Of a DNA stretch of 64,000 bases, positions 30,676 through 52,795 are shown piece by piece; position 1 is the first letter of the stretch; each line of letters begins with the position of its first letter. The translations under genes were made by a program, and so were the position numbers. The DNA is from a virus, in IMG/VR virus record IMGVR_UViG_3300032213_003144, positions 32,001 to 96,000 of that record; one strand, 5' to 3'. Under the pieces are notes generated by a model. That model did no database searches and had not been told where the DNA came from. It saw nothing but the letters and a program-made list of their open reading frames with translations.

Positions 30676-31401
30676 ATGGTTGCACTAAAAGACGTTGGAG
30701 GTAAGGAACCAGGCGCACCAATAAATGTGACCGCCACAAATGGTGCTACTGGAAACGCTATTGTTTCTTTCACTCCAAATGGAACCGGAAAAGGAACCCC
30801 CACATTTCAGGTTCTTTCAAGTGCTGGACACACAGCATCCGGCGCATCTAGCCCCATCACCGTTACCGGCCTAACTGGCGGAACAAGCTATACGTATCAG
30901 GTTAGGTGTGTTTCTAACGGCATCACCGGTCCGTATTCATTGCCGTCGGGAAGTGTTACTTCTGGTTTGGCACCAGGCGCGCCAACTGGTGTTACTGCAA
31001 CGGCAGGCAACGCATTGGCAACAGTTGCATACACTGCTGGTGCCGCTGGAACAACTGCTTCAACATTTACAGCCACCTCAACACCGGGCAGCTTTACTGG
31101 GGTTGGCGCATCTCCGATAACGGTCAGCGGTTTGGCAAACGGAACCCCTTACACATTTACGGTTACCGCATCAAACAGTTTTGGCTCAGCAATATCGGCT
31201 GCATCAAACTCCGTAACTCCAGTAGCGCCCCCATACTTTCCTCCTTACTTCCCACCCTTTTTCCCACCGTTCTTCCCTCCGTTCTTTCCTCCATTCTTTC
31301 CACCGTTCTTCCCTCCATTCTTTCCGCCATTTTTCCCTCCATTCTTCCCTCCATTCTTCCCTCCTTTCTTCCCGCCAGGTTTTGGTCCAGGTTTCAAATA
31401 G
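30676..31401 (+). CDS. Two-FN3-domain protein with a C-terminal (PPxF)n repeat tail
   Basis: PGAP-x-x-VTAT...SPITV-x-GL-x-x-GT-x-YT(Y/F)-x-V occurs twice; ends PPYF x2, PPFF x10, PPGF, GPGFK. Confidence 0.9.
   Translation: MVALKDVGGKEPGAPINVTATNGATGNAIVSFTPNGTGKGTPTFQVLSSAGHTASGASSPITVTGLTGGTSYTYQVRCVSNGITGPYSLPSGSVTSGLAPGAPTGVTATAGNALATVAYTAGAAGTTASTFTATSTPGSFTGVGASPITVSGLANGTPYTFTVTASNSFGSAISAASNSVTPVAPPYFPPYFPPFFPPFFPPFFPPFFPPFFPPFFPPFFPPFFPPFFPPFFPPGFGPGFK
31228..31395 (+). repeat. 12-bp-unit tandem repeat encoding PPYF x2, PPFF x10, PPGF, GPGF
   Basis: Read codon by codon; all four Pro codons and both Phe codons are used. Confidence 0.97.
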
Positions 31402-31415
31402 AAACAAAATAAAAA

Positions 31416-32039
31416 ATGAATTACCGAGAACTGGTTTTTGATTTAGAAAGCCTGCCGTCTGCCGACCCATCAAATATAGTCATCAAAGAAAATTTTATAA
31501 GCATAGAACACCTTGCAGAAATAATGGATTACTGTAAATCTGCAGAGTACTGGGAGTCAAGAAGTCCACTAGGTTCTGACAGTATTCATATGCCAGAATT
31601 CATTCGAAAGAATTCTCCAAAAGTGTTCTCAATCATGCAGCAATACGTGGATAACGTTCAGTATGAAGTTGAATATAAATTTGGTAGGAAACTTGAAAAA
31701 ACACAACCAGGAATACGAAAATGGTATCCAGGCGAGTATCAGGATTTGCATGCTGATGGAGAGACTTCTAGTGGGTGGCCTGGATATAACTACATCGTAG
31801 ATTACGGGTCAATAATTTATTTGAACGAAGAGTACGAAGGCGGAGAGCTATTTTTCCCAAAATATGACCTATGTATTAAACCAAATCCAGGAACTCTGGT
31901 TTTCTTCCCATCAACAAACATGTATGCTCACGGCGTTACGGAAATTATGGATGGGGTAAGGTACACATCCCCACATTTTTGGACACCAGTAAAGCACAGG
32001 CTATTAATGGAAATGGCTGTAATGGATGAGCAAAAATAA
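31416..32039 (+). CDS. 2OG-Fe(II) oxygenase, prolyl-4-hydroxylase-like
   Basis: HAD...YLNEEYEGGELFF...FFPS...HGV...G-x-RY. Confidence 0.92.
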   Translation: MNYRELVFDLESLPSADPSNIVIKENFISIEHLAEIMDYCKSAEYWESRSPLGSDSIHMPEFIRKNSPKVFSIMQQYVDNVQYEVEYKFGRKLEKTQPGIRKWYPGEYQDLHADGETSSGWPGYNYIVDYGSIIYLNEEYEGGELFFPKYDLCIKPNPGTLVFFPSTNMYAHGVTEIMDGVRYTSPHFWTPVKHRLLMEMAVMDEQK

Positions 32040-32781
32040 ACATTTATATTTTTTGCATATACCAAAGACGTCTGGAACAAAGATGCAGCACGACATACTC
32101 GCTGCATCAAAAAGTATAAATAAAGCAAAAGTTTACATACCAGGTGACTTCGAGTTTGTATTTAATCCAGAAATAGCCAATTCGTACAATATAATTTGCG
32201 GGCACTTCGCTCGCAATCCGATAGATGTTATCAATGGACTTACGACCTTCTCGATGATAAGGGAGCCATTTGACCAGTATTTAAGTTTGGCTAAATACGC
32301 AGCCGCACAATCCGGTGTTAAGTTTAGTGAAGAATTTTTAGATTTATTCCTTAGTAATGACAATGAATTCAACACACAGTTCGAAGGTATGTCTGGATGC
32401 GACAACCCTCAGTCTTGTTTTTTATTTTCAAAAATTGCATGTATTGAACATCAATCACCCGTAGATTCGTATGGTAATTTACCTGAATCAAAATATCAAT
32501 CATTTTTTGTGGAAAAGCCAACGTCTTATTCTGAGTTAAGCGAAAGATTGGACGGAATAATGATAGGGACTACAGAAAACAGGGCCCTCCTCGTTGAGAG
32601 AGTAAACAATATTCTATTTAATTTATATGGGATTAAAATGGCGCATAGTAATTCGGTAATCAATTCCACGCCGAAGCCGACATTCAAAATAAGCAAAAAA
32701 CACAAATCGAAGATACTCGAAAAAACCGAAATAGACATCGAGTTGTACACAAAAATAAAAGAACTAGAAAATGAACTTTAG
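32026..32781 (+). CDS. Sulfotransferase-like protein
   Basis: FLHIPKTSGT (5'-PSB loop), GHF, REPFDQYLS (3'-PB), D-x-ELY. Confidence 0.8.
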   Translation: MSKNKHLYFLHIPKTSGTKMQHDILAASKSINKAKVYIPGDFEFVFNPEIANSYNIICGHFARNPIDVINGLTTFSMIREPFDQYLSLAKYAAAQSGVKFSEEFLDLFLSNDNEFNTQFEGMSGCDNPQSCFLFSKIACIEHQSPVDSYGNLPESKYQSFFVEKPTSYSELSERLDGIMIGTTENRALLVERVNNILFNLYGIKMAHSNSVINSTPKPTFKISKKHKSKILEKTEIDIELYTKIKELENEL

Positions 32782-33511
32782 AAAACTATATCACCTGCAC
32801 ATACCAAGGACATCTGGGTTTGGAATTGCTAATGCATTAGAGAAAACATTTTCCAAGCAGGGTTTTGGTCTCCACAAACCAACACAAGATGTAATTTTTT
32901 CCGAAGAGTCATATACTCACTTTCCATACGTATCTGGTCATTTTGCAAAAAATCCGATTGCAAATAATGCAGACGCTTTTGAAGTTTTTTCAATAGTCAG
33001 AGACCCAGTGGAACACTACGTGAGCATTGCCGCACATGTCTCCGAAAGCACCGATTTTGAAATGTCAAACGAATTCATGGACGATTTCATGTATGGAAAT
33101 GTAACCCCTTTTGGGGCCAACGAACTATTCTCAAATTCGGGGAATATACAGTCAAAAATGCTATTTTGCAGGATTGCTTTTGTGGATAAGTCTTTTGTTT
33201 CGCTCAGAGATAGTGATGTTGTAAACGAGAAAAATATGGTTTTTATAGAAAATGACATGCCAAACGAAAATGAAATAAAAGACTTAATTGGTTCCATGAA
33301 TCTATTCGCCCTACCAGATAGGGGGATGGCGATTGATTGGCTCAAAGCAAACGTGCTTAAGTCGCATGGTTTTTCTTTAGATAAATCAATTTATTACATA
33401 ACGAATTGCTCGAAAAAAAACGGGTTTAAACCAGACATAACCCACATAAAGGAAATAAAACGGCGCTCAGAAATAGACGAATACCTATATAGGTTAGTAA
33501 AAGAACGATAA
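32771..33511 (+). CDS. Sulfotransferase-like protein (paralog)
   Basis: HLHIPRTSG, SGHF, RDPVEHYVS, DEYLY. Confidence 0.75.
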   Translation: MNFRKLYHLHIPRTSGFGIANALEKTFSKQGFGLHKPTQDVIFSEESYTHFPYVSGHFAKNPIANNADAFEVFSIVRDPVEHYVSIAAHVSESTDFEMSNEFMDDFMYGNVTPFGANELFSNSGNIQSKMLFCRIAFVDKSFVSLRDSDVVNEKNMVFIENDMPNENEIKDLIGSMNLFALPDRGMAIDWLKANVLKSHGFSLDKSIYYITNCSKKNGFKPDITHIKEIKRRSEIDEYLYRLVKER

Positions 33512-33529
33512 TTTGATAGTGTTGCAAGT

Positions 33530-34156
33530 ATGTCGCCAACCGAAAAATCACCATGGAATATACAGCCAGGACACTTTGGGGATGGTCCAGAGAACATACA
33601 CGTCTTTGAAAATTTTATAGATGAAGAAGATTTAAGGGTTGTTCAAGATTTCTGCCCAACAATAAACGAGTGGAATAACTCAAAAGAGAGCGTTTACGCC
33701 GAAGATGGAACATGCCTTTATAACGCTGATTACTGGAATGACAGGCAATGCAGCAGTGATATTCTACAAAGACTCTCCATGCCGGTTTTTAAAATAATTG
33801 ATAAATATATTACAAAGATGCAGTTAGAGCTTGAGAGAATCTACGACCTACGGTTATCTCCACGCCCACCGGTCATCATGAAGTGGAGGCCAGGAATTGA
33901 ACAGCGGCCTCACGCCGACAAGCAACTCAATAATGGTGAACCAAATGCATTCGTTGACTACGATTTGAATTCTTTGTTTTACTACAACGACGATTTTGAA
34001 GGCGGAGAACTTTATTACCCGCAACACGACTTGACCATAAAACCGAAACCCGGATTGGCTATTGCTCACCCAGGAGACGTTAATTATTTACATGGAGTCA
34101 CCTTGGTTACCAAGGGGTATAGGTACACAACACCATCGTTTTACACTGTGCTGTAA
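33530..34156 (+). CDS. 2OG-Fe(II) oxygenase, prolyl-4-hydroxylase-like
   Basis: HAD...YYNDDFEGGELYY...HGV...G-x-RY. Confidence 0.92.
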   Translation: MSPTEKSPWNIQPGHFGDGPENIHVFENFIDEEDLRVVQDFCPTINEWNNSKESVYAEDGTCLYNADYWNDRQCSSDILQRLSMPVFKIIDKYITKMQLELERIYDLRLSPRPPVIMKWRPGIEQRPHADKQLNNGEPNAFVDYDLNSLFYYNDDFEGGELYYPQHDLTIKPKPGLAIAHPGDVNYLHGVTLVTKGYRYTTPSFYTVL

Positions 34157-34159
34157 GCA

Positions 34160-34687
34160 ATGATTTTAATTCAAAAGAATTTTATAAAACCAAAAGAATC
34201 TGACCTAATCCTTGATTCGATTAAGGAGATAGGTTTGCCGCCCAACCTTGCAGAAGATGACCACTCAACCGGCTATTACAGCAAATCCGCCTTACTAGAG
34301 TCCGACGTCTTCGCATACGGAATATTCAATGAGGTATGCGAGCGAGTTTTGGGTTTAGCAGAAAAAGTATTTGATTTAAGCCTAGAACTAGACCAAGCCA
34401 CCCTCATTAAGGTCATTCCTGGAAATATAAGCGAAGAACACGCGGATAGTCAAAACCTTGACGGAACCCCCAAAACGGGCTGTAGTAATTTTCGTATTTC
34501 GGCAGTTGCGTACCTAAATGATGATTTCACTGGTGGGGACCTAGTTTTCCCGACAATGGAACACAGATACAAACCAGTCCCAGGGGATTGTGTAATATTC
34601 CCAAGTCATTTACAATATAGCCACTATGTGGATAGCGTCTTTAGCGGGGAACGAATAAGTTTGGCAATGTGGTTCTCCGGAGTATGA
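34160..34687 (+). CDS. 2OG-Fe(II) oxygenase, prolyl-4-hydroxylase-like
   Basis: HAD...YLNDDFTGGDL...FPS...H-x-V...GERIS. Confidence 0.92.
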   Translation: MILIQKNFIKPKESDLILDSIKEIGLPPNLAEDDHSTGYYSKSALLESDVFAYGIFNEVCERVLGLAEKVFDLSLELDQATLIKVIPGNISEEHADSQNLDGTPKTGCSNFRISAVAYLNDDFTGGDLVFPTMEHRYKPVPGDCVIFPSHLQYSHYVDSVFSGERISLAMWFSGV

Positions 34688-34694: not shown

Positions 34695-35426
34695 ATGAGA
34701 AACATTGATGTCGAGTACATAGGTGACCCCAAAGCTGGGTTTTTGGTTTATAGAAACATACTTACCGAAGACCTTAGAATTCCAGAACGCCTAGAAGCAA
34801 CAATAGGCGACAGCACCACTCCTCCTTATTCGTGGATGCAGGCCCTTGTCGGTGATGGTCAAGTAATGAAGGATTACAGGGATTGCGTTGACTGCAAGAT
34901 GAGCCCGGCACATTTTCAAAACTGTCCAGAGCAATACTCAGAACTCATCAACATATACAACGACACTGTCGTTGGATTGACTGCTTGCTTGCAAGATTAC
35001 GAATCCAGGTACAACATACGTATGGACTTCATGGAAGCAATCAACTACGTCCGATACAACGAGGGTCAGCACTTCAATGTTCACGCCGACCACGGTTTTT
35101 CATACGTCTGCACCGTGTCTTCGGTCATGTATCTTAACGATGATTACGACGGCGGCGAGCTTTGGTTTCCGTACTTAGATGTTACGTTTAAGCCTAAATA
35201 CGGAGACATAGTTTTATTTCCGTCAACATTCATCTATTCTCATGCATCCAAACCTGTCACCAGGGGAACCAAGTATGCAGCTGTAACCATGTTTGACTAC
35301 AACGACAGGTTCCATAAACAGTGGAAGGGCTACGGCAAGAACATAGACGGAACCGACGCTGAATACGGACCCGGAATCGTTAGCCCAACGGCAAACCAAG
35401 TCGAAAGATTTGTATTCAAAAAATGA
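34695..35426 (+). CDS. 2OG-Fe(II) oxygenase, prolyl-4-hydroxylase-like
   Basis: HADHGFSY...YLNDDYDGGEL...FPS...HAS-x-PV-x-x-GTKY (Lys as 2OG ligand, as in P4Hs). Confidence 0.92.
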   Translation: MRNIDVEYIGDPKAGFLVYRNILTEDLRIPERLEATIGDSTTPPYSWMQALVGDGQVMKDYRDCVDCKMSPAHFQNCPEQYSELINIYNDTVVGLTACLQDYESRYNIRMDFMEAINYVRYNEGQHFNVHADHGFSYVCTVSSVMYLNDDYDGGELWFPYLDVTFKPKYGDIVLFPSTFIYSHASKPVTRGTKYAAVTMFDYNDRFHKQWKGYGKNIDGTDAEYGPGIVSPTANQVERFVFKK

Positions 35427-36124
35427 CAAAATTATTTCTTAAACAAACACATCAGAGCCCACCACTCATACAACAGTCGAGGATTAAGCGTGACTGGATG
35501 GACGCTACTTATAATAAACACGCCTATCAATGTCTTCCAATGACGGTAGCCAATGTGTATGGATGGGAGTTGATTCTCGAAGAGGACCTAGTTGTTCAAT
35601 GGGATGGCGGGAATACTCCACCGACAATTATCTCTGGGGAGACGACCTCCTCTGGTCGGGTTCAGGCAATATCTTCGATAATCGGAATGATTTCAATAAA
35701 TATGGGCTGGGTAATAAATACAGAAGAGGGATACAACACCTGGATTTCTGGTTCGCCGAATTACTTCTTGGACGGAGCGGTTCCATTAACTGCAACAATT
35801 CCTAGTCATTGGTGGCCAGACGAATCCCAGATGAATTGGAAGATAACCAAAATTGGAGAGCCGGTAACATTTGCGGCGGGAACCCCATTTTGTTTTTTTA
35901 ATATCTACGACAACTCGATACTCGAGAATGTTGAGATTGTTCGGTCAAGTCTTTGGAGCGACCCTGAGCTCGTTGCGTCTCGCATGAAATACGGGGAAAT
36001 GAAGGCAAAAAATAATGTTGAAAAGCCGTGGACGTGGACAAAAGGTATTCGTACAGGTCTTGACGCGGACGGTAAACAAATAGGGCCTACATTCACTGGT
36101 CTGCCAAAACTAGCCAATCCATAG
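35423..36124 (+). CDS. DUF6065-like protein
   Basis: RDWMD...HAY-x-CLPM-x-x-AN-x-x-GW...G-x-PN...W...MNWKIT. Confidence 0.75.
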   Translation: MTKLFLKQTHQSPPLIQQSRIKRDWMDATYNKHAYQCLPMTVANVYGWELILEEDLVVQWDGGNTPPTIISGETTSSGRVQAISSIIGMISINMGWVINTEEGYNTWISGSPNYFLDGAVPLTATIPSHWWPDESQMNWKITKIGEPVTFAAGTPFCFFNIYDNSILENVEIVRSSLWSDPELVASRMKYGEMKAKNNVEKPWTWTKGIRTGLDADGKQIGPTFTGLPKLANP

Positions 36125-36169: not shown

Positions 36170-36406
36170 ATGAAATTCGAGTCTTCATTTTCAACGCAAG
36201 AGAAGAAACTTATATATCAGCGCACGCTCAAAGACCTGGAAAGACAGCTCATGGAGAGACTTCTTCAAGAGGGCTTTGACCCAGAGACATTTGATGCCGC
36301 AACGTTTGTCCCAAGTAACGACAGCCACGGCATGATTCAGGGACATAGATTTATTCTTGATTTCTTGGCAAAAATAGGAACTGTCAAATCAAGACTGGAA
36401 GAGTAG
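36170..36406 (+). CDS. Small helical hypothetical protein
   Basis: GGAG RBS; LE-x-x-L...GFDP motif. Confidence 0.65.
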   Translation: MKFESSFSTQEKKLIYQRTLKDLERQLMERLLQEGFDPETFDAATFVPSNDSHGMIQGHRFILDFLAKIGTVKSRLEE

Positions 36407-36415
36407 TATCCACTT

Positions 36416-36649
36416 ATGGCACTTTCTGCAGGACAACTAGCCAAAGCAAAGGCTGAAGCGATTCAAATTCTTGAGTACTCAATCTACACCCTTGCTTTTT
36501 CTCTTGGTATTCAAGACGAAGACCTTCTACCAGACATGGAAAATCCTATAGACATGTCATTGGCGGAGAATAGTTCTCTCGCTGCACAGTACGATGCATA
36601 CGAATGTCTCAAACTGCAATTGGCGGCCCTGGCAAGATTACAGAGTTAG
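36416..36649 (+). CDS. Small helical hypothetical protein
   Basis: TAGTAT-N6-ATG; LEYSI...LGI motif. Confidence 0.65.
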   Translation: MALSAGQLAKAKAEAIQILEYSIYTLAFSLGIQDEDLLPDMENPIDMSLAENSSLAAQYDAYECLKLQLAALARLQS

Positions 36650-36658
36650 CAGGTTGTT

Positions 36659-36970
36659 GTGAGGATAACTCCAGATATTCCGGCAACAATTTCAATTGTA
36701 GAAACTGCCATGGAATCAGGAAGATACGAAATATGTCCTGACATTGAGCCTGAATACCCAAATATTCAGGAGCCAATGCAAAACCCAAACAGAGATAGTC
36801 AGGTCCCTCGTTGGAATCCTAGGTTATTTTCTTTTGAGCTTCCAGATGGGGCTGCATTTTTTTGTGACTTACTTCAATCAAGTGATGCTCAATCACCATG
36901 GGAATCAACACATCAGGGTGATTTTACGAAAAATGAAACAGTAGAGGAGGCTTTCCAGGATGAGAACTAG
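36659..36970 (+). CDS. Hypothetical protein
   Basis: ORF track; lies within the operon. Confidence 0.55.
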   Translation: MRITPDIPATISIVETAMESGRYEICPDIEPEYPNIQEPMQNPNRDSQVPRWNPRLFSFELPDGAAFFCDLLQSSDAQSPWESTHQGDFTKNETVEEAFQDEN

Positions 36971-37283
36971 AAGTATTGGCGAGGGAAACCTTTATAACGC
37001 TGAATCAGACATGTCGTACCATGAGCAAAAATTAGCTGTTACTTCATATTTAGTTGGGTTTGACCCATCAGACATTGATTCAATGAGAATCGACTATGCC
37101 GTTGTTAAACTGCGAAAACTATGGAACTACTCCAGCGATGTGCGCGGAGACGTCGCTAATTCAACATTTTCTTCAAACAAGATTCATACGTTTTTATCAA
37201 AACAAAATGTCGCGCTAACAGAAGGTGCAAGATACGCGTACTGGAATTACTGTCTTGCAAGGGGTGTGAAAAATGGACAATAG
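36960..37283 (+). CDS. Hypothetical protein
   Basis: GAGGAGG upstream; HEQKL...VGFDP motif. Confidence 0.6.
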   Translation: MRTRSIGEGNLYNAESDMSYHEQKLAVTSYLVGFDPSDIDSMRIDYAVVKLRKLWNYSSDVRGDVANSTFSSNKIHTFLSKQNVALTEGARYAYWNYCLARGVKNGQ

Positions 37284-38031
37284 ACAACTAAGAACAGCTA
37301 TGGCCTCCAGGCTGATTGGGAAAAACCCAATTGAGTCAATTTTCCCCGACAGCACAGAGGAAATACTTTCTCTAATATCAGAAATGGCATCAAATGTCAC
37401 CGAATGGAGAAAGAGCGTAGAAGGACTTACTATGAGTATTGCCGCCCGAGGCGGTAGTGATGGGTGCTGGTACATAGACCTTATTGCAAATTTTCAAACC
37501 GGATTCAAGGAACTTCTTGCAAGGTCCGATGATGCCCTGGCTAGTTACGCCTTTGCAAAATTACCTCAAAAAGCTTTATTTTTTACCCCAGACGCAATGA
37601 CAACAATGTATTCGCTTAAACACGAACATCCAGAAACAGAAATACATTTTGTTAATACCCAGTCGCTTTACAATTATGAAACGTTTGCAAGAGATTCATC
37701 GGTTGTCGGGGGACCAGATTCCTATAGAGACATCGATTACAGTGTTGTCGAAAGAGACGAGATTGGTTCTGGAGATGCTTCAGGTTATGATTTCATCCAG
37801 GTGGCAGCGTGGGATGCAGTTTACGATTTAGAAATACTCAACAAGTGTGTTGATGCTCTATCCAGTAATGGAATTCTCTACGTAATGTCAACTAATCATT
37901 CAGGAAAGATTTATAGAGACGATGCAAAAATGCATCCATACTACGGTGCTCACGAATTGTTGAATAGCAAAGATGGCTATACGTATCACAACTCAGACAC
38001 ATATGGGTTCACGGTATTTACTAAAAAATAA
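37273..38031 (+). CDS. Divergent class I methyltransferase-like protein
   Basis: YDFIQV...VDALSSNGILYV...YGFTVFTK resembles the C-terminal half of the Rossmann MTase fold; motif I is not canonical. Confidence 0.5.
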   Translation: MDNRQLRTAMASRLIGKNPIESIFPDSTEEILSLISEMASNVTEWRKSVEGLTMSIAARGGSDGCWYIDLIANFQTGFKELLARSDDALASYAFAKLPQKALFFTPDAMTTMYSLKHEHPETEIHFVNTQSLYNYETFARDSSVVGGPDSYRDIDYSVVERDEIGSGDASGYDFIQVAAWDAVYDLEILNKCVDALSSNGILYVMSTNHSGKIYRDDAKMHPYYGAHELLNSKDGYTYHNSDTYGFTVFTKK

Positions 38032-38036: not shown

Positions 38037-39167
38037 CTACCTACAGGTATATCTTTCAAAGTCCATACCCTTGCGACGCATTACGTACTGCCAGAGATTA
38101 AATTTTCTAGACATAAATGCGCCCATGCATGACAAAAGGTAGAACTCCCACATTTTTCTAAATCGCTCGTCATAATTTGGGAGGTTTTCCCAATTTGATG
38201 TTACGTTTTTGTACCATTCCGCCAGAGTTTTTGAATAGTCCATGCCAAAGTTGTGCACATCTTCAATCACCCAATTTGGTTCTGCTGCTGCGGTGAATTG
38301 CGAAACCGATGGAAGGATTCCGCCAGGGAATATATATCTGTCATAGAACGGGTCAGCATCATGTCGTGCTCGAGTTGAGCCAATAAGGTGATGAACCATT
38401 ATTCCCTTGGGTTCTAATTGCTCATCACACTTATCAAAAAATAGTTTTAGATTTTTGGGCCCGACATGTTCCATCATTCCAATTGAAACAATCCGGTCAA
38501 ATTTGCCGAACTGTCCATCAAGGTCCTGGTATGTGAGTTGATGAATTTCAATCCCAAGGGGCTCGCATCTCTTGGTCGCGGTAGATATTTGCTTATCCAC
38601 AGGGGTAATCCCAACTCCAGTGATACCATACTTTTTTGCCGCATATTCAAGGAACCCACCCCAGCCGCACCCAATGTCCAAAACCCTCATCCCCGGCTTT
38701 AATTTTAGTTTTTTACAAATAAGGTCCATCTTCGCAATTTGTGCATCTTCCAAATTGTCTGCTTTTTGCCAATAGCCACACGAATACATCATGTAGTCAT
38801 CAAGCATCAGCTCAAAAAGGTCATTGCCAATCCCATAATGGAACTCCGCATTTTTTGGTGAACGACTTCTGTTCTGACGGTTAGCAATTCTTGACCATGC
38901 AGCCGCAATCGCAATACTTGGGCTCATCGGTATTTGTTTGGCCAAATCAATATTGGTAAAACGCGTAAGCATTTCGTCAACCTTTTCACACGACCACCAA
39001 CCATCCACGTAACCCTCTGCTAACCCAAGTAGTCTCTGGTCCATAAGCCTGTCCCATATACGTTCATCGTGGACTTGTATTGAGTACGGCTCGGGTCCGT
39101 TGATTGGGATTCCGGCCTGTGCGAATAGTTTTGTAAAGAGTTTGGATGATTTTTTTGACATATCCAA
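38037..39167 (-). CDS. cfa: Cyclopropane-fatty-acyl-phospholipid synthase
   Basis: HYGIGNDLF..MLD..M-x-YSCGYW, LEDAQ-x-AKMDLICKKL, VLDIGCGWGG, FDRIVSIGMMEHVG, YIFPGG, RF-x-x-MWEFYL. Confidence 0.95.
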   Translation of the reverse strand: MDMSKKSSKLFTKLFAQAGIPINGPEPYSIQVHDERIWDRLMDQRLLGLAEGYVDGWWSCEKVDEMLTRFTNIDLAKQIPMSPSIAIAAAWSRIANRQNRSRSPKNAEFHYGIGNDLFELMLDDYMMYSCGYWQKADNLEDAQIAKMDLICKKLKLKPGMRVLDIGCGWGGFLEYAAKKYGITGVGITPVDKQISTATKRCEPLGIEIHQLTYQDLDGQFGKFDRIVSIGMMEHVGPKNLKLFFDKCDEQLEPKGIMVHHLIGSTRARHDADPFYDRYIFPGGILPSVSQFTAAAEPNWVIEDVHNFGMDYSKTLAEWYKNVTSNWENLPNYDERFRKMWEFYLLSCMGAFMSRKFNLWQYVMRRKGMDFERYTCR

Positions 39168-39213
39168 ATCCTAGCATGGTAGCAAAGCGCAAAAATATTA
39201 AAAACAACCCCTG

Positions 39214-39231
39214 TGCTATGATTTTTGTATG
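39214..39231 (+). promoter_or_regulatory. Extended -10 leaderless promoter, divergent from a TGcTACCAT element in front of cfa
   Basis: TGcTATGAT-ttttgt-ATG. Confidence 0.6.
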
Positions 39232-39369: not shown

Positions 39370-39379
39370 GGACGGCAGA

Positions 39380-42397: not shown

Positions 42398-42406
42398 TAT
42401 CAATAT

Positions 42407-45417: not shown

Positions 45418-45419
45418 GA

Positions 45420-46409
45420 CTATTGGGCTTTCTGGTTTGCCGGATTTATGTATCCTTGTTCGCCCTCTAGGTTTCTGACGAGGTAATCAACATTGTTGGA
45501 ATTCTCGTCCAGGTGAGAAAAGTTTGTCCTCAGATGGGAGCAATAAGCTTGATAGTCATCAAACACTGAATCAATCCAATGTGGAGCACACCAGTTTGAA
45601 ACCTCTCCTGGCTCAACAACTTCTATTCTGACATTTGCATCAGGGCTACCCTGAGAAAAAAACTCCAAATACGAATAACGAGTTCCGCCAGTAACCGTAT
45701 TTACGCCATGTGAGGCAACATAATTTGTGGGGAAGATTATTATGTCTCCCCGTTTGGCTTGATGAGATATACCCAGGTATGGGAAAAATAATTCACCGCC
45801 TGAATAGTTTGTTCCATCTAGCTCTTCCACCGAACCAACGCAATCGTTAATATAAAGAAGTACTGCAACCGTCTGTCTTGCGCCAAGCTGACCATAGGGG
45901 ATGTATCGCTGACCGCCAGTGGCCCTGTAGTTCGTATCATTATCGTTGTGAAGGCCGAGATACTTCCCGGTGTCGTAACGGAGAATGTGTCCTCGGTTTC
46001 TCCACCAGATTGTTCCTGCGACAAGGGGGAACATGTCGATATATCTAATTAGGGATTTATAAATAGAATCTTCCCAGTTTCTTACAATGTCCACAACCTC
46101 TTGCTCTGTGTTGTCTTGAATTGGTTGAAGCACTCTTACCGGTACGGCCTCCACCTGTTCCAGGGAGAACTTGTTCCCGTCCTCATTTTTTAAGTACACC
46201 ACTCCGTTTATGTCTGTGTCGTACTTCCATCTCTGCTGATGCGCAGCAAGGGCATTTTTATCAATCCATTTGGACATAAACTCCAAGTTGGTTTCCATGA
46301 CATTGTGAAAAACAACCACCCCACCACCAAGGTTGGTAAAGTCCAATTTCCTGATTTCCTCCAGAACCTCTGGCGTCATTTCTGGTGTATCAACCTCATA
46401 CCTCTTCAA
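45420..46409 (-). CDS. 2OG-Fe(II) oxygenase (LGGGVVVF subfamily)
   Basis: WWRNRGHILRY...HNDND...GGEL...FPTNYVASHGV...GTRY. Confidence 0.9.
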   Translation of the reverse strand: MKRYEVDTPEMTPEVLEEIRKLDFTNLGGGVVVFHNVMETNLEFMSKWIDKNALAAHQQRWKYDTDINGVVYLKNEDGNKFSLEQVEAVPVRVLQPIQDNTEQEVVDIVRNWEDSIYKSLIRYIDMFPLVAGTIWWRNRGHILRYDTGKYLGLHNDNDTNYRATGGQRYIPYGQLGARQTVAVLLYINDCVGSVEELDGTNYSGGELFFPYLGISHQAKRGDIIIFPTNYVASHGVNTVTGGTRYSYLEFFSQGSPDANVRIEVVEPGEVSNWCAPHWIDSVFDDYQAYCSHLRTNFSHLDENSNNVDYLVRNLEGEQGYINPANQKAQ

Positions 46410-47394
46410 TTGCGTTCACCCTTTCTGCGATGTGCGTTTCTCCATACTGAGTGACGCATCTATTTTGAAAAACAGGATTTGCTCCCAGCTCAAGGTCGGG
46501 GGTTGGGTGTGACCATATTGAGAATTCAGATTTGCAATAACGCTCATAGTCATCGTAGATACTGTCGAACCAAACAGGTTCGCACCATTGGATACTTTCG
46601 ACAGACTCCTTAATTCGGATATTTGCAGATTCATCAGTTCCGCCTTGACCAAAGAAAGTTAGATACGCATACCTAGTGCCACCCTCCATCTTGGTTACTC
46701 CATGAGCACATATATAATTGGTTGGAAACATGATGATGTCTCCCTTTTGCGGCTTATAATCAATCCCAAGATACGTGAACTTTAAGTGACCCCCGACGAA
46801 TGTCTCTTCAGTTAGGTCGTCTTTGGAGTCAACGCAATTATTGAAGTAGGCAAGTGCTCCGGCTGTTTGACGAAGTGCGACCTGGCCCCTAGGCATGTAT
46901 CGAACACCTTCGGTCACTTTGTAGTTGGTGTCATTGTCCTGATGCCAGCCAAGTATGCCTCCACCGTCATACCTGAGTATGTGTCCGCGTGTTCTCCACC
47001 ATAGGCTTCCGACGATAAGTGGGAACATGTCAATATATTTTATTAAACATTTATAAATGACGTTCTCGAGCTCTGTGAAGTATTGGGTGGCATATTCATC
47101 TGTCGACTCGATAACGGGCTCTAGCAGCCTCACAGGAGCGTTTGGGACGTCCTCCAGGCGATACCTGAAGCCATCTTCGTTGATGCCGTACTCAACTCCA
47201 TCCTCGCCAGTTATGTATGTCCATCTAACCTTATGTGCTTCGGCTGCACAGTCGTCAATATGCTCAAGGATTCTATCTTCTACCTTGAATACATTCTTGA
47301 AAACGACTATTCCGCTTCCGAGGTCCTCAAAGGCAAATTCTGATATTTCCTTAAGTTCGTTTTCCCCAATGATTGGGGTGCCGGGCATTATCAC
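46396..47394 (-). CDS. 2OG-Fe(II) oxygenase (LGSGIVVF subfamily)
   Basis: WWRTRGHILRY...HQDND...FPTNYICAHGV...GTRY. Confidence 0.9.
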   Translation of the reverse strand: MIMPGTPIIGENELKEISEFAFEDLGSGIVVFKNVFKVEDRILEHIDDCAAEAHKVRWTYITGEDGVEYGINEDGFRYRLEDVPNAPVRLLEPVIESTDEYATQYFTELENVIYKCLIKYIDMFPLIVGSLWWRTRGHILRYDGGGILGWHQDNDTNYKVTEGVRYMPRGQVALRQTAGALAYFNNCVDSKDDLTEETFVGGHLKFTYLGIDYKPQKGDIIMFPTNYICAHGVTKMEGGTRYAYLTFFGQGGTDESANIRIKESVESIQWCEPVWFDSIYDDYERYCKSEFSIWSHPTPDLELGANPVFQNRCVTQYGETHIAERVNAIEEV

Positions 47395-47396
47395 GG

Positions 47397-48020
47397 CTAA
47401 CCGACAAGAAACTTGACTGCATCAATCACGGTCCAAGACTGTCCTGCCGCAACCGGTTTTTCTGCAAGCGGTCTATCGGCCCAATTGAATCTTCCAACCT
47501 GTTGACCGTCTCGGCTTATGAGGAATTTTTCATTGTTATGTGGGATTCTCATTATTGCCTGTCCGGCGAGATTCTGTCCAGCGGCAGCACCTTCGGAGCC
47601 GTCGGCCTTGTTGTCGTCGAAAGAACGAACAGTATCCCCCTTCATGAAGCTCCAGGTTTTATGTTCGTCCGGACCGTTGACATCAATTTTTTCTGTTATA
47701 GGGAAGGTGACGAATGGGTATGCTTCTGAAACAAATTTTGCTATTTCCTCATTACCCATCGGGTCCATTTCGCTGAATTGATTACACGGAAAAGCTACAA
47801 CGCTGAAACCTTTGTCTTCAAACATTTCGTGAAGCATTTGCAATTCCCATAGTTGTCTTGCCGCTCTTGCGTAAGACCAAACAGGACTACACTTAGGCGT
47901 ATACCCAGCCTTGGTCGCAATGTTTGTAAATAGGCATACTTTCCCCCTCACTGAGTCAAGTAAATTTGGGGACCCGTCTATAGAGTTAATTGAAATATCA
48001 AAAATTGAACGATTGGTCAT
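47397..48020 (-). CDS. Glutathione-peroxidase-like protein with Ala at the canonical peroxidatic Cys position
   Basis: NIATKAGYT, VVAFPCNQF, TFPITEKIDVNG, EKFLISRDG. Confidence 0.85.
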   Translation of the reverse strand: MTNRSIFDISINSIDGSPNLLDSVRGKVCLFTNIATKAGYTPKCSPVWSYARAARQLWELQMLHEMFEDKGFSVVAFPCNQFSEMDPMGNEEIAKFVSEAYPFVTFPITEKIDVNGPDEHKTWSFMKGDTVRSFDDNKADGSEGAAAGQNLAGQAIMRIPHNNEKFLISRDGQQVGRFNWADRPLAEKPVAAGQSWTVIDAVKFLVG

Positions 48021-48316
48021 ACTTTTACTCCGTTTATTTCGACGGTAACGTACTTATCAATCTCAACAAATCCTTTTAGTATTTTGCCGACCGATTGAAA
48101 CTTGCAGTGAAAATCAACGCTCATCGGGATATCGGTATGACCGCATAGGTCGACGTCAATCGTGTCGTCTGTCGTATTGATTATGGCTCCAGAGAATTGA
48201 ACTATACCCTTGTCGTGGGATATTGAGCCAGAGCCGTCATCGTTCAGACCGATGACATACGATTCTTTACCCAGTGGGGATAATGCGCTTACTGACCAAG
48301 TTCCCAAAGATTCCAT
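48017..48316 (-). CDS. Small beta-rich hypothetical protein
   Basis: GTW-x-V-x-x-x-SPLG pattern; TGcTAACAT-N6-ATG upstream. Confidence 0.65.
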   Translation of the reverse strand: MESLGTWSVSALSPLGKESYVIGLNDDGSGSISHDKGIVQFSGAIINTTDDTIDVDLCGHTDIPMSVDFHCKFQSVGKILKGFVEIDKYVTVEINGVKV

Positions 48317-48331
48317 GAGGGTATGTTAGCA
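48314..48331 (-). promoter_or_regulatory. Extended -10 leaderless promoter
   Basis: TGcTAACAT-accctc-ATG. Confidence 0.6.
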
Positions 48332-48335
48332 CTGA

Positions 48336-49124
48336 CTATGGAGTCCTGAAGTATATTCCTTCGCCCCACTTGGCAAAAACATCAGAATGCTTTTCGACCA
48401 TTTCATCACGAATGGTACCTGACTGCTCGTAGAGCTCTCTGTCTTCAGGCTTGACATCTGGGTTTGAGAACATATTGCAATAATGCCCGATTAGGGATTT
48501 TCTTGTTAGTCCCCTATTGACCGGCATTGAACCTCTGTGAACAAGATGCCCGTGCCAAATTATGACATCACCCTTTTCGGCAATAAATGGGAACGTAGTT
48601 GCATTCCGTTTATCTATTTCTTTTTGGAAGAAATCATGAGATGATAATCCCTCTCTGATTCTTCCTGGCTTGCCAGGCTCCGTCAGGTACAAATCATCCA
48701 AACTGCAATTCCAGTTATGTGAACCAGGGACTATCTCGAACGGACCGGCTTCAGGGCTGACATCCTCAAGAGCAACCCAAGCGCCCTGATAATTGTCTCC
48801 AGCTTCTTTGAACGTAAAAGCTGCATCTTGATGCCAACCTTGTTCGGTTGACGTGAAGTACGTGACGTTCTTGTGAAGAGCTACCGCCTTGTTGACGTCA
48901 ACGAAAGTTCTTGCAATAGAGTCGTGGCAAAGAATGTCCATGATTTCTGGGTGGTCGAGGTATACGTCGAAGTCATTGCCCCATCCCTCTAGGTTTCCTC
49001 GTTCGTCCATTCGGTCTGCTACGTGCTTTAGCCAGAGCTGTTCGTATTTCTCGATGAGGTCGTCAGGGATTGCTTTTTTTAGTAATACGTAGCCATTTTC
49101 GTCGTAAAAGTCTTTAATGCTCAT
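48336..49124 (-). CDS. Phytanoyl-CoA dioxygenase (PhyH)-family 2OG-Fe(II) oxygenase
   Basis: FYDENGYV, WHQD, WVALED..P-x-AGP...VPGSH, GDVIIWHG-x-LVHRG...R-x-S. Confidence 0.92.
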   Translation of the reverse strand: MSIKDFYDENGYVLLKKAIPDDLIEKYEQLWLKHVADRMDERGNLEGWGNDFDVYLDHPEIMDILCHDSIARTFVDVNKAVALHKNVTYFTSTEQGWHQDAAFTFKEAGDNYQGAWVALEDVSPEAGPFEIVPGSHNWNCSLDDLYLTEPGKPGRIREGLSSHDFFQKEIDKRNATTFPFIAEKGDVIIWHGHLVHRGSMPVNRGLTRKSLIGHYCNMFSNPDVKPEDRELYEQSGTIRDEMVEKHSDVFAKWGEGIYFRTP

Positions 49125-49188
49125 GAACTAGACATTACACCATTTCTGCTAATAGTAAGACACACACTATAAAAATGCTGAAATCTAT

Positions 49189-49650
49189 TTACGTTTTAAC
49201 CCAAAAGAAGGAAGACGCATACCTATCTCCTGCGGTGATTTCTTTTACACCATGAAAAACCGGATTGCGCCAAAAAATAAGCGAACCCTCTTTCGGCTTA
49301 ATCTCTATCTTGTCATCAGGGAAGTATATTTCACCACCATCAAAACTATCAACCCAGTACAGTGTTGACGAAAAATCTGGTCTTTCTTCTCTCTTTGTGA
49401 AATCAATATGGACATCCTGTTTTTCCCCAATTGTGGAAATGTTGTAGTCCAACCCTGGATAGTCATATTCTTGGACTGTGATTGAAAATTCTGCTTCTAT
49501 TAAAGATTTTACCCTGTCCCTTATCGACTCGTAGTTGATTGTTGGTGGCAGGGACGGGAACCCATCTTTTGGGGTATTGGATATATGTTGAGCAAAAATC
49601 TCTAATTCAGAAGCTGTTAGTAAATCTTCAATATAATGAATTCTGCTCAT
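49189..49650 (-). CDS. 2OG-Fe(II) oxygenase, prolyl-4-hydroxylase-like (compact)
   Basis: HID...FDGGEIYF...IKPKEGSL...HGVKEITAGDRY. Confidence 0.9.
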   Translation of the reverse strand: MSRIHYIEDLLTASELEIFAQHISNTPKDGFPSLPPTINYESIRDRVKSLIEAEFSITVQEYDYPGLDYNISTIGEKQDVHIDFTKREERPDFSSTLYWVDSFDGGEIYFPDDKIEIKPKEGSLIFWRNPVFHGVKEITAGDRYASSFFWVKT

Positions 49651-49668
49651 GTTTTCACAACGACCTTA

Positions 49669-50610
49669 TTAATCCAATGCATCCATTGCTTCGTAGAACT
49701 CCACTGGGTTGAAGCCGGCAAAATCTAGGTACTCTTTCAATTTTTCTGCATTTGGTGCTCCGCTATCGCCAAATAATTCACCCATATATATGCTTCGTTG
49801 GCGAGCTAAATCTTTTTGAAAACGTACTGAATAGCGGTTCATGTTTGAATGACCAATGTTGCCATGCCAATCATTTTCATAAAAAACCTCACCCTTGTTC
49901 ATGTGCCATAAAAATGGCTTTCCAATCGAGAACATTCTGTAACCACGAGTGTATGAGCGAAGTGCTACGAGGTGCTCATCACCAATAAATACAAACTTCC
50001 AGTCATGCCCAACCTCCTCCAACCATGATGATGAAGCAAACAAGACGTGGCCAGCAATCGTGTTGTGCTCAACCACATCTTCTCCGCACACAACTGAATC
50101 CCAAGACCTTTTTGGCTCTATCCAATTTTTTTCTGGAAAACCAAAAATGTAAGAACATACGTTGCAACAATTCTGTGAATCCGGTTTGTAGTGGAGTATT
50201 TCCCCATTTTCCCCTACTGACCACCATGGCACGAATGTTGAGATAATCGGTTTTTCGAACCCAGATTCAATTATTTTTTTATGTGCAGATATCAGACCGG
50301 AATCCCAATTTTTTTCAAAAAGCATGTGGGCGTCAATTTGTAAATAGTAATCCTCATTATTCCAAAATGAATCAGCTATCAATCTGTCAACACCAAAACC
50401 AGAAGGTTTACCAATTATTGAATATCTTACTTGAACGTTTTTAAGCATTGACAGGTCTTCGAAGCATCCGTCATTTGACTGATAATTTATTCCAAAAAAC
50501 ACTCGTTCTTGATGTTCGGCCATCTTTTGAGCTGACTCAATTGTTTGTTTTAAATATTGCTCATTATACGCAGGAATTGAAATAAAAATTGTCTTTTGAT
50601 TGTCGGTCAT
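49669..50610 (-). CDS. GT60-like glycosyltransferase ([Skp1]-hydroxyproline GlcNAc-transferase family)
   Basis: TIFISIPAY...L-x-x-TI...A-x-x-x-ERVFFGI-x-x-Q and EDYYLQIDAHM-x-F-x-x-NWD, plus F-x-GDE-x-x-x-ALR-x-YT-x-GY...WH. Confidence 0.8.
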   Translation of the reverse strand: MTDNQKTIFISIPAYNEQYLKQTIESAQKMAEHQERVFFGINYQSNDGCFEDLSMLKNVQVRYSIIGKPSGFGVDRLIADSFWNNEDYYLQIDAHMLFEKNWDSGLISAHKKIIESGFEKPIISTFVPWWSVGENGEILHYKPDSQNCCNVCSYIFGFPEKNWIEPKRSWDSVVCGEDVVEHNTIAGHVLFASSSWLEEVGHDWKFVFIGDEHLVALRSYTRGYRMFSIGKPFLWHMNKGEVFYENDWHGNIGHSNMNRYSVRFQKDLARQRSIYMGELFGDSGAPNAEKLKEYLDFAGFNPVEFYEAMDALD

Positions 50611-51272
50611 AAATCAAATTTTTCTATTGAAGAGTTTACAGATGCCCTGTATGTTGTCTTAAAGTACTCATGTCTATTGTAGTCAAACATAGTGACAACG
50701 GAATATTTGATACCATCTTCGACATTTAGGGCAGAGTGCATATACATAAAATTAGAAGGAAACACAATAATATCCCCAGCCTCAGGCTGAATGGTCACGT
50801 CAAGATTTTTGAAGTGCAGAGCACCCCCAGTAAAATCTGAATTTAAATACGCAACTGACGAAACAGATGCGACATAGCTAAAACCATCATCTGAATGATA
50901 ATTAAAGTAGTTATCATCATAATACTTTATGATATTCATAGTTTCCACGAAACCTAGGTCAACATTGAAATTCCTGGCATAATTTAATGCCGTATCGATT
51001 ATTTTGTTCCGCATCGAATTTACAATTCGAATATCATCTATGTCGTATTGTTTGTTTTTTAATGCAACTAGGTCTGGTTTCCAATCAAAACATTTCCTAT
51101 AAGTCGCACTTAATTGATAGTGTCCAACTTGCGCGGGGGACCATAGACACTCTTGGCCGTTTTGCCCACTAGCAATTCTCTCTATTGCGTCAACTACTGC
51201 TGGCGCATCATCTATTGCGTTTGGGAATCTCCAAATTCCAAAGCGTTCTTCACCACAGTATGCGTGGTCCAT
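50607..51272 (-). CDS. 2OG-Fe(II) oxygenase, prolyl-4-hydroxylase-like (paralog of 34695..35426)
   Basis: HSDDGFSY...YLNSDFTGG...FPSNFMYMHSA...G-x-KYSVVTMFDYN. Confidence 0.92.
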   Translation of the reverse strand: MDHAYCGEERFGIWRFPNAIDDAPAVVDAIERIASGQNGQECLWSPAQVGHYQLSATYRKCFDWKPDLVALKNKQYDIDDIRIVNSMRNKIIDTALNYARNFNVDLGFVETMNIIKYYDDNYFNYHSDDGFSYVASVSSVAYLNSDFTGGALHFKNLDVTIQPEAGDIIVFPSNFMYMHSALNVEDGIKYSVVTMFDYNRHEYFKTTYRASVNSSIEKFDL

Positions 51273-51278
51273 TGATTG

Positions 51279-51506
51279 CTACCACTTGCCAAGCGGGCAT
51301 GCGGCTGCCTCCATCTTCACCTTGAGTTTCATGAAGCATCCACACTCTTTGCATTGTTTTGTTGTTTTGATTAAGCTCGGGCACTCCTCGCATATTTTGA
51401 ACCGATTTGCCGAAACATCTTCCGTCGCTTGAGGTGTGTTTGGGTTTAGTACATCCCACGGACGTGTTGTGCCTAGTTTCTTTTTATATTCTTGCCATGC
51501 ATTCAT
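51279..51506 (-). CDS. Small Cys-rich (DUF6171-like) protein
   Basis: R-x-x-IC-x-x-CP...QC-x-x-CGCFM-x-x-K...CPLGKW. Confidence 0.75.
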   Translation of the reverse strand: MNAWQEYKKKLGTTRPWDVLNPNTPQATEDVSANRFKICEECPSLIKTTKQCKECGCFMKLKVKMEAAACPLGKW

Positions 51507-51523
51507 GCTGTAAATCCTTGCTC

Positions 51524-51754
51524 CTATACTGGTGGGTGAAAGCCTGTCTCATCATGAGTGTATCCCTCAATGACCATATCCTTTTGTTCCTCTAAAAGGA
51601 CTATTACCTTTGGGTCAGAAGATAGGGCTGCCACTTCGAGCGGCATATATTCGGTTCTCATTGGAATAATGCAGGCCACTTCGCCATCTACGACAAAAGC
51701 AAAGTAGGTGAAGTCTTCCTTGCGGAAAGTTGTTGGTGCTTCATTGTTTGACAT
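51524..51754 (-). CDS. Small protein, paralog of 23221..23439
   Basis: FAFVVDGEV...LSSDPKVIVL; AAGGAG RBS. Confidence 0.7.
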   Translation of the reverse strand: MSNNEAPTTFRKEDFTYFAFVVDGEVACIIPMRTEYMPLEVAALSSDPKVIVLLEEQKDMVIEGYTHDETGFHPPV

Positions 51755-51775
51755 ATTTCTCCTTCTTTCTAAATG

Positions 51776-52795
51776 CTAACAGCCTGGGCCATCGCAATAT
51801 ACGTTTTGTGTAATGGTGCAGTTGGCGTTTCTTCTGTCTACCTGGAAGCAGTTTCCAGCACCTGGGTAGCATTTTCGACCGCTATTGTAGTACAGGACGG
51901 TACAGCCACTCGAAAATGAAGGTGGTGCGGTAAAGGTCGGTGGTGCGGTAAAGGTCGGTGGTGCGGCAAAGGTCGGTGGTGCAACCCAGCCACACTGTGC
52001 TTGGTACGGGTAGTTATTTATTCCAACTTCGCCACAACATCCGTCAGCAATAACATCTTGCAAGCTGTACGTAGGGCTTCCTGGTATGCAGTTCATGCCA
52101 ATAGGTGTTCCGTATGGGTCACATCCAGCGCAAGGGTCATTGAAGGTTGGAGGAGGAGCAGCAAATACCGGCGGTGAAACGTTTGTGGTCTCTTCAAGGT
52201 AAATTGAATCAGAGTTTGCCCAACCAGTCTTGGATACGTATACATATGTAAAGCGATTGACATTCTCACCAAGGCCAGTCCAACCGTGGCAACTTCCACT
52301 CTGGTCGTTTGGTACAACGTTGTAGCCGTAATAGTTGTAAGTATATGTAGCGTCGTGGTTGTCATAACAAAGCGGAATCGAGGAAGTTGTTTCTGCAATG
52401 TCGGAAACAATCGGTGTTGGGAGTTTTCCAAATAGCGGAGTTACCGAGTTTGAGTTGCTTGAAAAAGCCCCTGTGCCAATCGTATTTACTGCGGCGACCC
52501 TGAACACATAGGCTGTTCCGTTGGTCAAGCCAGTCACCGTAACTGAGGTTGAAGTTGAAACAGAGTCAGAGAATGTTGTAAAAGTGGAACCGCTGTCACT
52601 TGAATACTGGATTACATAATCGTTCAATGCCGGGCTCCCCAACATGACGGGGGCCGTCCAACTTACCGATGCAGTTGTGTTTCCATATGTTGCAGGAAGA
52701 CTTGCGGTCACCGATGTTGGTGCGCCTGGGACGAATCCCATGCGAAAACCAAACTTACTAGTTGAGCCGCTTCCAATACGGTTTAAGAATGGCAT
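51776..52795 (-). CDS. FN3-domain tail-tip protein with a Cys-rich C-terminus and PPxF repeats
   Basis: PGAPT-x-V...SWTAP...Y-x-IQYS...GLTNGTAYVFRVAAVN; PPVF, PPTF and a tandem (A/T)APP(T/S)F array. Confidence 0.88.
   Translation of the reverse strand: MPFLNRIGSGSTSKFGFRMGFVPGAPTSVTASLPATYGNTTASVSWTAPVMLGSPALNDYVIQYSSDSGSTFTTFSDSVSTSTSVTVTGLTNGTAYVFRVAAVNTIGTGAFSSNSNSVTPLFGKLPTPIVSDIAETTSSIPLCYDNHDATYTYNYYGYNVVPNDQSGSCHGWTGLGENVNRFTYVYVSKTGWANSDSIYLEETTNVSPPVFAAPPPTFNDPCAGCDPYGTPIGMNCIPGSPTYSLQDVIADGCCGEVGINNYPYQAQCGWVAPPTFAAPPTFTAPPTFTAPPSFSSGCTVLYYNSGRKCYPGAGNCFQVDRRNANCTITQNVYCDGPGC
51915..51983 (-). repeat. 18-bp tandem repeat encoding APPTFAAPPTFTAPPTFTAPPSF
   Basis: + strand ggtggtgcgg(t/c)aaaggtc units. 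Confidence 0.93.

Follow-up and report, generated by a model that had tools for sequence, protein, structure and literature searches.

The idea that a virus modifies its own proteins has precedents in the prolyl 4-hydroxylase (P4H) of chlorovirus PBCV-1, in the bacterial hydroxylase and sulfotransferase operons with tail-collar or collagen-like proteins predicted by Iyer et al. 2010 (PMC2938197), and in mycobacteriophages, whose virion glycosylation is described by Freeman 2023 as cited in PMC12619734. In collagen, prolyl 3-hydroxylase 1 (P3H1) acts on Pro-4Hyp-Gly, Hyp being hydroxyproline (PMC11012932, PMC11381544). The glycosyltransferase family GT60 includes the Hyp-directed Gnt1, which needs Hyp (PMC6939170), and the Thr-directed TcOGNT enzymes (PMC9472816). 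Prolyl-hydroxylase-like genes are among the most abundant 'auxiliary metabolic genes' of phages and their use has been called cryptic (PMC9301287); cyanophage oxygenase arrays were assigned to metabolites (PMC2938197). Here we analysed a window of 64,000 nucleotides (nt), positions 32001-96000 of the 170,425-nt contig IMGVR_UViG_3300032213_003144, rated complete, from an uncultured lake phage. Two FN3-domain proteins with PPxF repeats enclose an island of 2-oxoglutarate (2OG)-Fe(II) oxygenases, for which the best reading, and in our judgement a probable one, is that the phage hydroxylates prolines in its own fibre-associated proteins.

Proline repeats and neighbouring oxygenases

The genome carries sheath-, baseplate- and tape-measure-type genes, and a WhiB gene (window 1188-1535) points to an actinobacterial host (PMC10611076). 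The sequence-only reading of the window had listed two FN3-PPxF proteins, 15 oxygenases between them, two sulfotransferase-like genes and a GT60-like gene; all were recovered in place and the recount of oxygenases was again 15 (Table 1). Its convergent operons were also found, the two arms meeting at 44872-44879, with one gene (38037-39167) inverted within the left arm. The left protein (241 aa) has the predicted FN3 match and ends in two PPYF, ten PPFF and one PPGF unit (repeat at 31228-31383), and the 14-nt gap to the first oxygenase gene is as described. Ten of the 13 12-nt repeat units differ and all four Pro codons are in use, indicating that the repeat is selected as protein; DNA slippage as its origin was ruled out on the same counts. 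The right protein (339 aa) likewise carries the PPVF, four PPTF and PPSF units attributed to it, so that its repeats contain both Pro-Pro and Thr, and has 12 Cys within its last 130 aa. Its linker is hypervariable among orthologues and swapped freely. The two small genes noted beside it are a DUF6171 gene and a 76-aa gene, both of which usually come after Cys-rich fibre-associated proteins. No tandem PPxF arrays beyond these two were found in the whole genome.

A degenerate pattern search located PPFF arrays at no fewer than 119 viral loci on many different heads, including FN3 heads, small PASTA-like heads (by eye) and the interior of large proteins, often preceding a Cys-rich or Hint-like end. 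The array genes lie nearly always directly 3' of a fibre gene, which supports the repeat proteins being fibre-associated virion proteins; gene position and the PHROG tail matches of the fibre genes suggest a location at the tail tip. By eye, PPFF proteins at L006, L020, L080, L084, L118 and L212 have a terminal Hint-like domain, and those at L032 and L085 end in an apparent intramolecular chaperone domain.

Linkage was analysed in two sets. The first was anchored on the C-terminal domain motif of the short fibre protein, which selects neither repeat nor enzyme and was found at 120 loci; these were dereplicated and at least 4 kb of downstream DNA was required. The gene after the short fibre gene is a variable module in many phages. 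Two or more oxygenases were present at 22 of 26 loci when this gene had a Pro repeat, compared to 1 of 17 otherwise (p 5e-7), and at L047, the single repeat-less exception, the PPFF gene lies upstream, one fibre gene away. In the fibre-domain tree the repeat changes state 11 times; a tree-aware test of six independent pairs gave the same direction 5.2 times and the opposite 0 times on average. In the independent second set, anchored on the DUF6171 gene, Pro-rich sequence was again associated with oxygenases (p 0.0025). Neither set was selected on repeat or enzyme, and both show strong linkage; the association on which the sequence-only reading depended therefore holds across genomes. Moreover, all DUF6065 loci with enough upstream DNA have a PPFF gene (these are close relatives), and at 59 loci with related FN3 heads and no Pro linker, nearby oxygenases and GT60 are both absent. 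The repeat-enzyme association is real, widespread and previously undescribed; PPFFPPFF and DUF6065 were found in no paper in the literature.

Oxygenase clades were obtained by clustering 1,240 oxygenases taken from the loci. Next to 75 aromatic repeats, a set partly enriched by a DUF6065 query, clade 0 was present in 51, clade 2 in 53, DUF6065 in 53 and all three in 41; clade 2 and DUF6065 were nearly inseparable (both in 49, one alone in 4 and 4, neither in 18). By comparison, of the roughly 18 genuine PT/PA-type linkers, 9 are accompanied by a single clade-5 enzyme and only one by clade 2; about 20 further 'non-aromatic Pro repeats' were set aside by eye as antisense shadows of collagen-like or Gly-rich genes. 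Enzyme clade thus tracks linker type across unrelated heads, and the recurring core is an Arg-type oxygenase nearest to P3H1, a Lys-type oxygenase nearest to Bacillus P4H, and DUF6065.

The 15 island oxygenases comprise 12 PF13640-like proteins and one each of PF13759, Asp_Arg_Hydrox and PhyH; three PF13640 matches and the PF13759 match are near or below the curated cut-off, yet retain the HxD/H...H...R/K motif. Clade 0 comprises the genes at 31416, 33530 and 34160, clade 2 those at 34695 and 50607, and clade 1 four long paralogues. In collagen-type P4Hs, a Lys binds the C5 carboxylate of 2OG. Lys occupies this site in 26 of 27 clade-2 representatives and in both island enzymes, where it aligns with Bacillus anthracis P4H (BaP4H), to which the clade-2 profile is nearest (E 5e-9). 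The three clade-0 enzymes have Arg there, and thus lack this collagen-type feature. The HDH iron triad (HxD...H) is present in both clades. Along its whole length the clade-0 profile is nearest to human P3H1 (E 1.4e-18, compared to 1.7e-13 for BaP4H), and the Fe triad (His/Asp/His) and the Arg669 equivalent align with P3H1. The 31416 product is a 207-aa stand-alone domain without the N-terminal CRTAP-binding domain; its model (predicted local distance difference test score 93) has the double-stranded beta-helix fold of the class and gave 50 peptide prolyl hydroxylases as the top 50 structural matches, with Z 17.7 to P3H1, tied with PPHD/PHD2 (17.7 vs. 17.2; overall Z 16-18). By profile and modelled fold, the repeat-linked oxygenases fall among peptide prolyl hydroxylases; the class is clear, but with this tie the fold tells neither P3H from PHD/PPHD nor the regiochemistry. 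The Pro-4Hyp-Gly substrate of P3H1 is not matched, the repeats here being Pro-Pro-aromatic.

DUF6065, the third core protein, resembles trimeric dUTPase (beta-clip fold; Foldseek E 3e-5, template modelling score by target 0.68, about 13% identity), and its conserved R-x-W-M and K-H-A-Y-x-C-x-P differ by eye from the dUTPase motifs; our guess is a scaffold or chaperone. A second family of about 250 aa, possibly a DUF6065 paralogue, stands beside it at L201:3131-3922 and many PPFF loci of one lineage and has no Pfam match. In bacterial genomes, DUF6065 was found on only three contigs from metagenome-assembled genomes (MAGs); L381 (JBDNFI010000028.1), the one read, is a phage-type PPFF/oxygenase/DUF6065 locus assigned to a Cyclobacteriaceae MAG; the contig is probably mis-binned phage DNA and does not indicate a host. 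Among cultured phages, neither the FN3-PPFF protein nor DUF6065 had a match.

Table 1. Features of the island and its flanks (window coordinates).
Feature	Coordinates	Strand	Match or remark
Short fibre protein, conserved ~100-aa C-terminal domain	29896-30672	+	PHROG 8780 minor tail, E 2e-21
Left candidate substrate, two FN3 domains and 13 PPxF units	30676-31401	+	PF00041, E 2e-10
Arg-type prolyl-hydroxylase-like oxygenase, clade 0	31416-32039	+	clade profile best match human P3H1
Two sulfotransferase-like genes, carbohydrate type	32026-32781, 32771-33511	+	
Two further clade-0 oxygenases	33530-34156, 34160-34687	+	
Lys-type P4H-like oxygenase, clade 2	34695-35426	+	best PDB match Bacillus anthracis P4H
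DUF6065 protein, trimeric-dUTPase-like fold	35423-36124	+	near-constant clade-2 partner
Four small conserved genes and methyltransferase-like gene (37273-38031)	36170-38031	+	order kept in relatives
Sporadic insert: cyclopropane fatty acid synthase (-), Asp/Arg beta-hydroxylase-like oxygenase and fatty acid desaturase (+)	38037-40944	-/+	
Five more oxygenases, clades 4, 8, 1, 1, 3	41080-44879	+	
NAD-binding protein, two clade-1 oxygenases, glutathione peroxidase-like, 99-aa gene, PhyH-like oxygenase, short oxygenase	44872-49650	-	
GT60-family glycosyltransferase	49669-50610	-	PF11397, E 4e-24
Second Lys-type P4H-like oxygenase, clade 2	50607-51272	-	
DUF6171 Cys-rich small protein (51279-51506) and 76-aa gene	51279-51754	-	
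Right candidate substrate: FN3, second domain, Pro/Thr/Phe linker, Cys-rich end	51776-52795	-	
Baseplate-associated fibre gene, directly upstream of right protein	52802-53773	-	PHROG 892 tail fibre, E 1e-14
Baseplate J	55088-56539		

The GT60 glycosyltransferase and the sulfotransferases

The right-arm glycosyltransferase matches PF11397 with 86 bits (cut-off 21) and has the QID-x-H motif, whose His is invariant in six homologues. The coupling to a P4H-like oxygenase seen by the sequence-only reading stands, the two genes overlapping by 4 nt; the relay which that reading drew from it, with a P4H followed by GT60 as on Skp1, fared differently. GT60 loci were collected by an alignment-based search. 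In the DUF6171-anchored set, GT60 went with Thr runs (7/11 vs. 5/31, p 0.006) and was linked neither to oxygenases (p 0.73) nor to PPxF (p 0.39). Among right-protein orthologues, GT60 follows five of six Thr-rich variants and none of nine Thr-poor ones, and the sixth Thr-rich variant, which has a different head, carries GT61 in the GT60 slot. At L485, the interval from the fibre gene to GT60 contains no P4H-like gene, and GT60 occurs without an adjacent oxygenase at L322, L347, L365 and L375. A complete (100%) relative of 172.5 kb with PPFF and PFF proteins has no GT60, while positive controls were detected. Because GT60 tracks Thr-rich linkers and not oxygenases, and is missing from the complete relative, GlcNAc (N-acetylglucosamine) O-linked to Thr seems likelier than a Skp1-type Hyp relay, and the enzyme at 49669 is a probable Thr-directed polypeptide GlcNAc transferase. 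The same Thr linkage, L485 and the GT60-less relative suggest that proline hydroxylation and glycosylation by GT60 are separate modules that meet on the right protein.

At L487:2658-3551, GT61 takes the slot that GT60 has in relatives, after a PPVT-repeat protein. After Thr-rich, Cys-rich fibre proteins, a radical SAM/SPASM gene lies between oxygenase and GT60 at L309:4923-5996, L310, L485 and L367; its product could possibly cross-link the Cys-rich end in the manner of ribosomally synthesised and post-translationally modified peptides. A full-length GT60-like homologue with 24% identity occurs in the cultured Xanthomonas jumbo phage Xoo-sp13 (MN047793.1:225936-226907), a possible bench model for virion O-GlcNAc.

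As single sequences the two sulfotransferase-like genes gave no Pfam match, and the identification was borne out by the family profile, which matches heparan sulfate 6-O-sulfotransferase (HS6ST, E 3e-8); 6 of 26 family members match Sulfotransfer_2. The 5'-phosphosulfate-binding loop (H-I-P-K/R-T-x-G) and the 3'-phosphate-binding motif (R-x-P...Y-L-S) are invariant in 26 homologues and align to HS6ST, in agreement with the carbohydrate sulfotransferases that depend on PAPS (3'-phosphoadenosine 5'-phosphosulfate). These genes are accessory, present at 18 of the 75 aromatic-repeat loci, and accompany 17 of 50 Tyr-containing compared to 1 of 25 Tyr-poor repeats (p 0.004), about half of the cases being one lineage.

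Explanations for the island

Under the preferred reading, in which the phage hydroxylates prolines of fibre-associated proteins that it encodes itself, these proteins would be modular: an anchor/FN3 (or PASTA) head would bear a Pro-rich linker that can be exchanged, in many cases followed by a Cys-rich or Hint end, and linker-matched enzymes would be carried beside the linker. For Pro-Pro-aromatic linkers the set would be a Lys-type P4H-like enzyme, DUF6065 and at least one Arg-type P3H/PHD-like enzyme, with the prolines most likely hydroxylated. As a separate module, GT60 would put GlcNAc on Thr of the right protein's linker, and the sulfotransferases and methyltransferase would be additions of particular lineages that modify the newly made hydroxyls or sugars. 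A polyproline-II rod that is otherwise very hydrophobic would thereby probably become soluble, resistant to proteases or adhesive. From the observed genes, families, folds and co-variation we infer the virion location, the substrate, the hydroxylated carbon, the glycan site and the purpose.

A more specific version of this reading, possible but tentative, is that freshwater actinophages run a collagen-like P4H and P3H two-step on their fibres, with a dUTPase-fold scaffold and with linker and enzyme swapping as a combinatorial surface code. Each Pro-Pro-Phe-Phe unit would become 3-/4-hydroxy- or dihydroxyproline, and the swapped enzymes would be hydroxylase clades, GT60 or GT61, and sulfotransferases. 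As P3H acts on Pro-4Hyp-Gly, a P4H/P3H pair on a Pro-Pro repeat is attractive, albeit unproven. If true, this would be the first bacteriophage hydroxyproline system and the first peptidyl P3H partner pair in the prokaryote world.

Several observations weigh against hydroxylation of the fibre-associated proteins. The tree-aware test has a median p of 0.0625, short of significance, and the GT60/Thr orthologue set yields only two independent tree pairs. Eleven of the 75 PPFF genes have no adjacent enzymes, that set is the one partly enriched through DUF6065, and L310 retains a clade-2 enzyme beside a linker without Pro-Pro or aromatic residues. Identity to characterised hydroxylases is only 16-20%, and PiuC-type enzymes score almost as high. 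The repeat-linked clades 0 and 2 include only 5 of the 15 island oxygenases, leaving ten and two lipid enzymes outside the explanation.

These leftover genes lend themselves to another account, in which the substrates are host lipids, small metabolites or other proteins, and the enzymes neighbour the fibre genes only because the site is an insertion hotspot inherited as a block. The desaturase, the cyclopropane synthase and the LpxO/AspH-family enzyme of the island speak for it, as do an acyl-carrier-like gene elsewhere in the genome (G000:C1:146271-146534, by eye), the secondary-metabolite roles given to cyanophage arrays (PMC2938197) and the tree-aware p of 0.06. However, the hotspot has no cluster where it lacks a Pro repeat, clade identity follows linker chemistry irrespective of the head, and the lipid-type insert is sporadic, found in only a few relatives. 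We consider this account unlikely overall, though it may well hold for the accessory ten oxygenases. The Skp1-type relay, in which the 50607 oxygenase makes 4-Hyp, GT60 adds GlcNAc and the sulfotransferases cap the sugar, draws on the 4-nt overlap, on the Hyp requirement of Gnt1 (PMC6939170), on the carbohydrate type of the sulfotransferases and on a few Thr-free PPFF/PPYF proteins with GT60 nearby (L300, L449). It is made quite improbable by the lack of linkage of GT60 to oxygenases or PPxF, by its preference for Thr-rich right-protein variants, by its presence beside only 6 of the 75 aromatic repeats and by its absence from the complete relative with two Pro/Phe proteins.

It is very unlikely, in our estimate, that the aromatic residues are the main targets, with Phe/Tyr hydroxylation and Tyr sulfation yielding an adhesive like mussel glue, although Mefp-1, which combines Hyp, dihydroxyproline and 3,4-dihydroxyphenylalanine (PMC4275877), is a precedent. 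Clades 0 and 2 accompany aromatic repeats and rarely PT/PA, and sulfotransferases prefer Tyr-containing repeats; but the nearest characterised relatives of both clades act on Pro, clade 0 is also found after linkers made of poly-Pro alone (L203, L223, L508) and half of the sulfotransferase cases are one lineage. At L204:1432-2226 and L238, a PPFF-type FN3 head has a tail of Pro-poor Phe/Val/Gly/Ser repeats; a different set of three paralogous genes of about 222 aa (HEH...HPH...R motifs) comes next, and then one PF13640 oxygenase. This Phe-rich tail would suit aromatic targets, but the three paralogues could not be placed as oxygenases: no Pfam model names them, and hhalign gave a probability below 5%.

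Other genes, and comparison with known systems

Elsewhere in the island, Atlas features relate 37273-38031 to methyltransferase clusters (0.92), a lead only. The clade-1 profile matches PiuC-like proteins alone, weakly (E 4e-4), and this clade sits further downstream. Glutathione-peroxidase-like genes lie at window 11660-12538 and 47397-48020, with another at genome 146726. Such genes are found in most oxygenase clusters, and their products may deal with peroxide that uncoupled turnover releases, or may introduce disulfides into Cys-rich ends. A second glycosylation cluster outside the island (12548-16372, minus strand) holds an epimerase, a methyltransferase, a GT2 and two more GT-like genes, whose products could extend glycans on fibres. 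A 1391-aa protein (7403-11578, minus strand) with a signal-peptide-like start, a long Thr run, a Pro/Val/Glu-rich linker, acidic helical repeats and C-terminal membrane segments is a possible second substrate, located on the host surface, for GT60 or an oxygenase. A Gly-rich protein (PF21722, weak) with a small partner (21759-23182, plus strand) follows the 18761 fibre and forms a third fibre-end module, in which adjoining enzymes and Pro repeat are both absent. A TauD-like gene lies at genome 166940-167791 (by eye). Promoter and terminator counts were no different from shuffled sequence. RNA contigs of relatives cover fragments of the locus, and none joins the repeat gene to an oxygenase.

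The locus family supplies a short synthetic substrate and three core proteins, making the question of hydroxylation quickly testable. If the preferred reading is true, many such genes would be virion-maturation enzymes and not metabolic helpers, which would change ecological counting, and hydroxyproline would join phage protein chemistry. It would also make small, soluble enzymes of the P3H/P4H type, and a cytoplasmic GlcNAc transferase for Thr, available as tools. The oxygenases of cultured phages and cyanophages are only 26-35% identical to those of the island, and extending the explanation to cyanophage arrays would therefore be premature.

Among known systems, the Skp1 pathway of Dictyostelium and Toxoplasma (PhyA/Gnt1; PMC6939170) shares a GT60 gene beside a prolyl-hydroxylase-like gene. 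However, the phage has no Skp1, no PgtA-like extension enzyme was found adjoining GT60, and the obligate coupling of GT60 to a prolyl hydroxylase does not extend to these loci. The TcOGNT polypeptide alpha-GlcNAc transferases of Trypanosoma cruzi (GT60; PMC9472816) share the Thr-rich mucin-like linkers; the phage enzyme differs in being phage-encoded and cytoplasmic, without Golgi targeting, and in having a predicted acceptor. Mycobacteriophages, in the account cited in PMC12619734, are likewise actinobacterial phages glycosylating their own virion proteins, but at capsid and tail-tube C-termini, with other GT families and, as far as that account goes, no hydroxylases. In the systems of Iyer et al. 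2010, a co-encoded fibre-like protein is similarly predicted to be hydroxylated and then sulfated; those systems differ in using beta-hydroxylase/PhyH families and Gly-rich substrates, and in belonging to bacteria. As in collagen modification by P4H and P3H1, Lys-type P4H-like and Arg-type P3H-like enzymes co-occur with a Pro-Pro repeat, here with no Gly-X-Y repeat, no CRTAP/PPIB/PDI and the low identity given above. Chlorovirus PBCV-1 also encodes a P4H-class enzyme (vCPH, PDB 5c5t) together with Pro-repeat proteins. Both clade profiles match 5c5t, which also ranks first among the Foldseek matches of the 31416 product. PBCV-1 is a eukaryotic virus with one enzyme, whereas this phage combines a bank of paralogous predicted enzymes with Pro-Pro-aromatic repeats and a dUTPase-fold partner.

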